NCBI RefSeq assembly: GCF_002854065.1
Contig: NZ_CP024147.1
Direction: 5' to 3' (one strand)
Length of the DNA stretch: 64,000 nucleotides
Source of the DNA: Escherichia coli
GTDB lineage: Bacteria; Pseudomonadota; Gammaproteobacteria; Enterobacterales; Enterobacteriaceae
Shown here: positions 56,988 to 57,381 of the stretch, one piece after another
Numbering within the stretch: position 1 is the stretch's first letter
How the letters are laid out: each line of letters starts with the position of its first letter
Translations under genes and position numbers: made by a program
The notes under the pieces: model-generated
Told to the model about the DNA's origin: nothing
Database searches by the model: none
What the model saw: only the letters and a program-made list of their open reading frames with translations

Positions 56988-57381
56988 TCAGGATTGTGCG
57001 GTGTAATAGACCAAAGCCAGCTTGTTGCCATCGGGGTCTCTAACATAAGCGCTGTAGAAACCTTCGCCGTAATGCGGGCGCAGGCCAGGTGCTCCCTCGT
57101 CCGTGCCTCCTTGGTTTAAAGCGAGCGCGTGAAGCTGCTGGATATGTTCGGCAGTGCGGGCAATCAGGGCGACCATCACACCATTTCCGGTTGTGGCATC
57201 CTGTTTATCAAAAGGTATGCCGATACCCAGTGCCGTCGTGTTATTACCGTTGAAAACGCCCAGCTACGCGACGTCCTCATTCCTGCCACAATGGGTATAG
57301 CTCTGCATCTCCATGAACGGATAGTCGAATGTGAGGGCATGTGGCTGGTAGTTTGTTTTAAGCATAATGTAAGAAAACATG
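56988..57381 (-). pseudogene. Glyoxalase/VOC-family gene remnant (frameshift plus in-frame TAG), paralogue of the intact gene at 60022-60414
   Basis: Minus-strand translation begins MFSYIML then hits TAA; shifting one frame gives KTNYQPHALTFDYPFMEMQSYTHCGRNEDVA then TAG, then reads on to ...EHIQQLHALALNQGGTDEGAPG...; collinear with the intact paralogue (MFSYVMLGTNDLPRAIRFYDPLMELLGYPKAGRNEEGASW...). Confidence 0.7.

Follow-up and report, generated by a model that had tools for sequence, protein, structure and literature searches.

Closest described systems and the present locus

The closest described counterpart of the defence genes at this locus is the BPAN type of pAgo system, in which pAgo occurs with an Aga_Helical-REase (PMC10620215). 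We analysed a 64,000-nt stretch of Escherichia coli DNA (the window), and PADLOC assigned the pair next to the gene studied here to pAgo_II plus Aga_Helical-REase, BPAN type. The ApsAB antiplasmid system, whose ApsA, a helicase-nuclease, has motifs extending to residue ~1435 (PMC11096173), was also considered for the neighbouring pAgo and was rejected, PADLOC giving the BPAN-type pair instead.

The gene itself, a member of the VOC/glyoxalase superfamily, has its closest described counterpart in a stump of E. coli K-12, located between sgcX and yjhP and annotated in RefSeq as pseudogene D8B36_RS23250. The stump derives from the same orthologue, shares the backbone (topAI-yjhQ-yjhP-Zn-ribbon pseudogene-VOC) and also sits at a cargo border. 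It differs from the window copy, which is full length, in retaining only nt 1-119 and in carrying a stop of its own (TAC to TAA, codon 19). A literature search on the K-12 pseudogene names yjhY/yjhZ returned nothing useful. For the protein family, the nearest solved structures (PDB 4qb5 and 4z04) carry the superfamily name only; the intact protein of Salmonella enterica (P0001) matched 4qb5 with E=5e-17, and NCBIfam gave nothing specific for this VOC family.

The window locus is part of a genomic island at tRNA-Leu (leuX, anticodon CAA). The order of the island is integrase, type I R-M, a PtuA/PtuB-like pair, PD-(D/E)XK nuclease plus pAgo, the VOC pseudogene, Zn_ribbon_2, methyltransferase (yjhP), topAI/yjhX, GNAT, a second VOC gene, an MdtM-like transporter, and onward. 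The right-hand 20 kb of the window (44000-64000) were 99.97% identical to the corresponding DNA of E. coli VTB96935v, apart from an IS2 (1331 bp) found in the window only.

Our reading, to which we give a probability of about 0.88, is that the gene is a unitary pseudogene, in which the orthologue of a 130-aa, uncharacterised VOC protein of the leuX-island backbone has decayed; it is not a recent duplicate, and its decay is independent of the adjacent pAgo cassette. The features on which this reading draws are collected in Table 1.

Table 1. Features of the VOC pseudogene and its surroundings, in window coordinates
Feature	Position	Strand	Description and basis
VOC/glyoxalase-superfamily pseudogene	56988..57380	-	single frame of 130 codons, counting the TGA stop (56988-56990); translation, BLASTP, orthologues, PGAP
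In-frame TAG, codon 39	57264..57266	-	ancestral TGG (Trp), G-to-A transition; translation and orthologue comparison
Hyper-substituted tract, codons 8-40	57261..57359	-	24 lineage-specific substitutions in 99 nt, no indel; outermost at 57359 and 57262
Shine-Dalgarno AAGGAG	57386..57391	-	5 nt upstream of the ATG, kept in the paralogue; read from the sequence and alignment
G+C-rich hairpin	56957..56976	.	immediately 3' of the VOC stop; the scan scored the + strand, and the stem is palindromic
Junction of backbone (VOC side) and cargo (pAgo side)	56770..56771	.	end of homology to cassette-free loci
Zn_ribbon_2 gene, 83 aa	57428..57679	-	PF12674, E=7e-10; synteny
Intact VOC paralogue, 130 aa	60022..60414	-	PF00903, 27.9 bits against a cutoff of 20.6; other orthologue group

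A full-length VOC reading frame with one disabling lesion

Translation showed that all 130 codons are readable from 57380 in a single frame, with the ATG at 57378-57380 on the minus strand. An earlier sequence-only reading of the same DNA had set the start at 57381, one position off. The conceptual translation was MFSYIMLKTNYQPHALTFDYPFMEMQSYTHCGRNEDVA*LGVFNGNN...LALVYYTAQS*, with stops as asterisks, and the TAG at codon 39 was the only disabling lesion. The frame was collinear with the intact gene at 60022-60414, as that reading had recognised (BLASTP, 80/129 identities, E=1e-57, gapless). The +1 frameshift that it had placed after codon 7 was not found: the translations of the other two reading frames of the 56988-57380 region contained no VOC similarity, and DNA alignments against the in-window paralogue and five orthologues showed no gap inside the coding sequence. 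Similarity falls after codon 7 because of dense point substitutions, not because of an indel, and it was these substitutions that had been mistaken for a frameshift.

The in-frame TAG itself was confirmed. It had been described as standing where the paralogue has Trp, which does not apply to the in-window paralogue (Ser39, TCC; Trp40) and does apply to the true orthologues, where Trp-Trp occupies positions 39-40 in every intact protein found. Because the intact orthologues read TGG TGG where the window reads TAG CTG, the TAG represents a G-to-A change in a Trp codon, and codon 40 directly after it has changed from TGG to CTG. This TGG-to-TAG nonsense change would be the event that inactivated the gene in this E. 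coli lineage.

Homology to the VOC superfamily (PF00903) was evident over 129 residues in BLASTP against the in-window paralogue and in phmmer against P0001 (E=1e-65). The pseudogene does not behave as a functional member of PF00903: apart from the TAG, its translation matched no Pfam family at E<=0.01, which the paralogue does, and invariant residues have been replaced. The same 393 nt, 100% identical, occur in E. coli VTB96935v (NZ_CP178662.1), where RefSeq/PGAP lists a 'VOC family protein', pseudo, with 'internal stop'. The pseudogene as such was thus already flagged in public annotation, and the sequence-only reading had been right to call the gene pseudogenised. The allele is known from three independent sources, namely the window (with IS2 in pAgo), VTB96935v and the metagenome contig ONZV01000265.1.

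We also considered whether the gene could still work, either by read-through or suppression of the TAG or as a split gene with a C-terminal module (63-aa ORF, 56988-57179) that acts alone. Only 7 nucleotides separate codons 41-130 from intact alleles and an ORF with a GTG start spans codons 68-130, both of which speak for activity. Recent common descent with the Salmonella allele would, however, explain the low 3' divergence equally well, and no Shine-Dalgarno is evident in the sequence before codon 68. Six invariant residues have been replaced by residues seen in 0/110 homologues (G8K, D11Y, Y19D, D20Y, G27S, W40L), and with the Pfam match absent and the leuX anticodon wild type a working gene is very improbable. 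Amber suppression by a supP-type allele of leuX was rejected on the last ground: with its wild-type CAA anticodon, the window leuX tRNA is not an amber suppressor. A residual product may be conceivable, either a 38-aa N-terminal peptide or a C-terminal half-domain initiated at the GTG/ATG codons 68/69.

The two neighbouring VOC genes as old paralogues

The sequence-only reading regarded the gene as a duplicated segment that had decayed and possibly marked a pAgo insertion scar. Two facts fit the idea of a recent copy of 60022-60414 at such a scar: the genes are collinear, of equal length and 3 kb apart, and the cargo begins after the pseudogene, which closes the backbone. The pairwise nucleotide alignment with flanks that had been proposed as a check did find similarity, 66.7% over 384 nt (blastn; 57010-57392 against 60044-60426), and this similarity was confined to the coding sequence and the AAGGAG ribosome-binding site, with flanks that could not be aligned. 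At the protein level the two genes share 62% identity.

We searched for orthologues with the repaired translation of the pseudogene. Intact 130-aa orthologues at 81-85% identity were found in Salmonella enterica (P0001), Klebsiella oxytoca (P0004) and metagenome/read-archive contigs (P0002, P0003, P0005). The full-length homologues formed two groups, 21 of them nearer to P0001 (group A) and 84 nearer to the in-window paralogue (group B). The clear orthologues in group A (P0001-P0007) were 86-100% identical to Salmonella P0001, and the nearest members of group B, from Klebsiella, Citrobacter, Salmonella, Enterobacter and Raoultella, were 87-99% identical to the in-window paralogue; identity between the groups was ~71%. 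The copies are therefore not lineage-specific as those of a recent segmental duplication would be, and flank identity is lacking as well. Separate orthologue groups across genera and the absence of flank similarity argue that the pseudogene is not a recent copy of 60022-60414 and that both genes are old paralogues lying 3 kb apart.

The in-window paralogue resembles the pseudogene in superfamily, length, collinear order and Shine-Dalgarno, and differs from it in being intact, passing the Pfam cutoff, belonging to group B and adjoining the MdtM-like transporter. Salmonella P0001 is the closer counterpart, sharing with the window copy the 130 codons, 85% amino acid identity, the position after Zn_ribbon_2 and the pAgo neighbour; the window copy departs from it by the TAG and by 14 further replacements in codons 8-40. 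A Zn_ribbon_2 gene precedes the group A VOC gene in every related locus, and yjhX and the methyltransferase usually stand before this pair. The normal place of the gene is after Zn_ribbon_2 in a conserved block, topAI(yjhX)-methyltransferase-Zn_ribbon_2-VOC, in the backbone of Enterobacteriaceae leuX islands. A disabling lesion in the window, together with intact orthologues at the syntenic position in relatives, is what defines a unitary pseudogene.

A third VOC gene was observed within 7 kb (63226-63660, minus strand, 144 aa, PF00903 E=1e-12). Its identity to the 60022-60414 paralogue is only 26%, so that it is a member of another subfamily and lies outside any duplication.

The pAgo cassette beside intact and decayed VOC genes

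We compared the locus with loci that lack the cassette, namely those of K. oxytoca (L008-L010), two contigs (L015 and L018) and E. coli (L002/L004), in which VOC is followed by a DUF7828/Zn_ribbon_11 gene. Homology to the K. oxytoca and E. coli loci crosses the VOC stop and ends at the junction 218 bp downstream, and the hairpin behind the stop belongs to the shared backbone. The VOC gene is uninterrupted at this junction.

Two Salmonella loci (L006/L007) carry the same cassette with the same junction beside an intact 130-aa VOC gene. Their cassette comprises pAgo (743 aa), a nuclease (390 aa), proteins of 388 and 567 aa and hsdS, and the region is 95-99.6% identical to the window at the DNA level. 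In a third lineage (L019-L021) the VOC gene next to the same cassette is damaged in another way, by the loss of 1 nt (-1 frameshift) near codon 88. Lesion and cassette thus do not co-occur as an insertion scar would require. Since the same cassette and junction sit by an intact Salmonella VOC gene, the cassette did not cause the decay; given that the Salmonella gene is intact and that of L019-L021 differently lesioned, the cassette arrived next to an intact gene and the window lesions followed later and independently. On this comparison, VOC decay is independent of the adjacent BPAN-type pAgo cassette.

Taken with a junction 218 bp beyond an uninterrupted 130-codon frame, these loci and the separate orthologue groups make a recent duplicate marking a pAgo landing scar highly unlikely. 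One part of the scar idea survives: the VOC gene stands at the backbone/cargo border of the leuX island and is cut there in other E. coli. The comparison also shows that the BPAN-type pAgo cassette was exchanged between Salmonella and E. coli and kept its junction intact.

In the window the pAgo gene is split by a complete IS2 (1331 bp, 53181-54511), which is 100% identical to many E. coli copies and is flanked by a target duplication, CGTCC, at 53176-53180 and 54512-54516. VTB96935v, metagenome contig L014 and Salmonella all have an unbroken pAgo gene of 743 aa. Because of the IS2, the defence module beside the VOC pseudogene is knocked out in the window strain.

Several defence systems are stacked in the cargo (~44000-56770), namely type I R-M, a PtuA/PtuB-like (Septu-type) pair (48775-51647) and the pAgo pair. 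One part of the cargo, 48510-53181, shared 99.6% identity with contigs of Salmonella enterica, a sign of recent intergenus transfer.

A hyper-substituted tract within the pseudogene

With the majority of intact orthologues as reference, 31 substitutions in the coding sequence belong to the window branch, and 24/31 fall within 99/393 nt (binomial P=1.6e-9). This sharply bounded tract differs from every other sequence at 23-34/98 positions; the corresponding count for those sequences against Salmonella L007 is only 2-15. The flanks of the tract are close to intact alleles: against L007, L008 (K. oxytoca) and L018, 0-2/68 nt differ on one side and 8-9/274 nt on the other. The product is altered by 15/17 changed codons, giving 14 residue replacements and the TAG; 11/14 replaced residues were found in none of 110 homologues. 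These 24 unconstrained substitutions destroy family-invariant residues of the first beta-alpha-beta-beta-beta module.

The substitutions were distributed 10:7:7 over the codon positions, with transitions and transversions at 12:12. GC-to-AT changes (15) exceeded AT-to-GC changes (5), lowering the GC content from 61% to 51%. Among the ancestral bases, G was replaced 12 times, C and T 5 times each and A 2 times. A promoter scan found no sigma-70-like site within 57261-57359, so the AT-enriched tract has not acquired a new promoter.

Several origins were rejected. Gene conversion from the in-window paralogue does not account for the tract, as the paralogue keeps the ancestral bases and every 30-nt bin of the tract is nearer to Salmonella than to the paralogue. 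The K-12-type stump as donor fails likewise, having the ancestral base at every tract position. A diversity-generating retroelement or deaminase-like origin does not match a spectrum that is neither A-specific nor purely C-to-T/G-to-A; the tract is not DGR-like because its spectrum is not adenine-specific, and the window contains no repeat of the tract that could serve as a template. In-place decay spread evenly over the gene does not fit flanks nearly identical to intact alleles.

A donor was sought in several collections. None was found in the window by blastn-short, nor in VTB96935v. When 5426 E. coli genomes were searched for distant similarity, each genome matched at one place and no match was closer than 80.7%; among plasmids only two matches to the K-12-type stump appeared, and phages gave none. 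Two exact 20-23-mers from the tract had 0 matches in 100,044 species-representative genomes, and a scan of JGI metagenomes returned the same lineage only (L014, without IS2).

By exclusion, the tract is most likely a short recombination import from an unsampled, long-dead allele, or a piece of a resident allele of that kind kept in heteroduplex. The competing possibility is that it arose in place through one or a few clustered mutational events, such as error-prone repair synthesis. The absence of a donor from every search and a spectrum resembling raw mutation (AT-biased, ts:tv ~1, no codon-position bias) speak for it. An old dead allele would give the same neutral spectrum, however, which bears no signature of a single process. 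To our knowledge, 24 substitutions in 99 nt without an indel lie far above the density of clustered mutations in bacteria, and we consider an origin in place unlikely.

The last changed base of the tract is nt 119 of the coding sequence, which is also where homology to the K-12-type stump stops. The ancestral sequence at this edge is GC(A/C)TGGTGG, and the K. oxytoca allele, CCTGGTGG, is one base off Chi (GCTGGTGG); this edge is a possible hot spot. It is rather doubtful that the tract is the footprint of a recombination hot spot at the leuX backbone/cargo border, with pieces of old stumps inside imported alleles, or else a dense local mutational burst. The substituted tract is a small curiosity of the locus.

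The K-12-type stump (L011 2968-3084; L012) was itself seen to be chimeric, with nt 1-84 orthologue-like (~96% identical to Salmonella) and nt 85-119 paralogue-like.

Repeated loss of the gene in E. coli

Every E. coli copy found was a pseudogene, and the lesions differed, with seven genomes carrying full or partial copies and ~1650 carrying the 119-nt stump. The window and VTB96935v have the TAG at codon 39 and the substituted tract. 2012C-4221 and PapM-32-1 have a -1 shift at codon 34 and a +1 shift near codon 85. XJ23PTE1 and R2 have ATG changed to GTG, a stop at codon 4 and a 3' truncation at the cargo junction (window-equivalent 57079, the cut recorded for L003/L005); strain 744 gave the same partial match. 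The stump, present in ~1650 of 5426 complete genomes including K-12, carries its TAA at codon 19 and abuts sgcX. Several database 'proteins' of the family are also frameshifted or truncated versions.

Among the 'intact' orthologues L007, L008, L015 and L018, pairwise dN/dS was 0.56-1.8, a range calculated from few substitutions, which suggests that selection may be relaxed even where the frame is open. We infer weak or no selection on the gene. It would be dispensable in E. coli and many relatives and would therefore have been lost repeatedly, and its position at the backbone/cargo border may expose it to recombination end-points.

An already flagged pseudogene of an uncharacterised family carries little weight alone. 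It has modest value as a marker, VOC being where the backbone genes of leuX islands end and the variable defence cargo starts, and the varied breakage from strain to strain (nonsense changes, frameshifts, truncations) records independent cargo exchanges and relaxed selection.

Other genes of the island backbone

The methyltransferase gene next to topAI/yjhX (57807-58871, minus strand) was an in-frame deletion derivative of a K. oxytoca two-domain enzyme of 546 aa, in which residues 1-45 are fused to residues 258-546 with the junction near 58659-58669. K-12 has the yjhQ antitoxin gene between topAI and the methyltransferase (PMC4666372), unlike the window, which is without it. The DUF7828/Zn_ribbon_11 gene was frameshifted in several E. 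coli (L003, 7577-7923; L002, 5516-5843; L004, 7513-7840) and represents a second decaying backbone gene at the same border as VOC.
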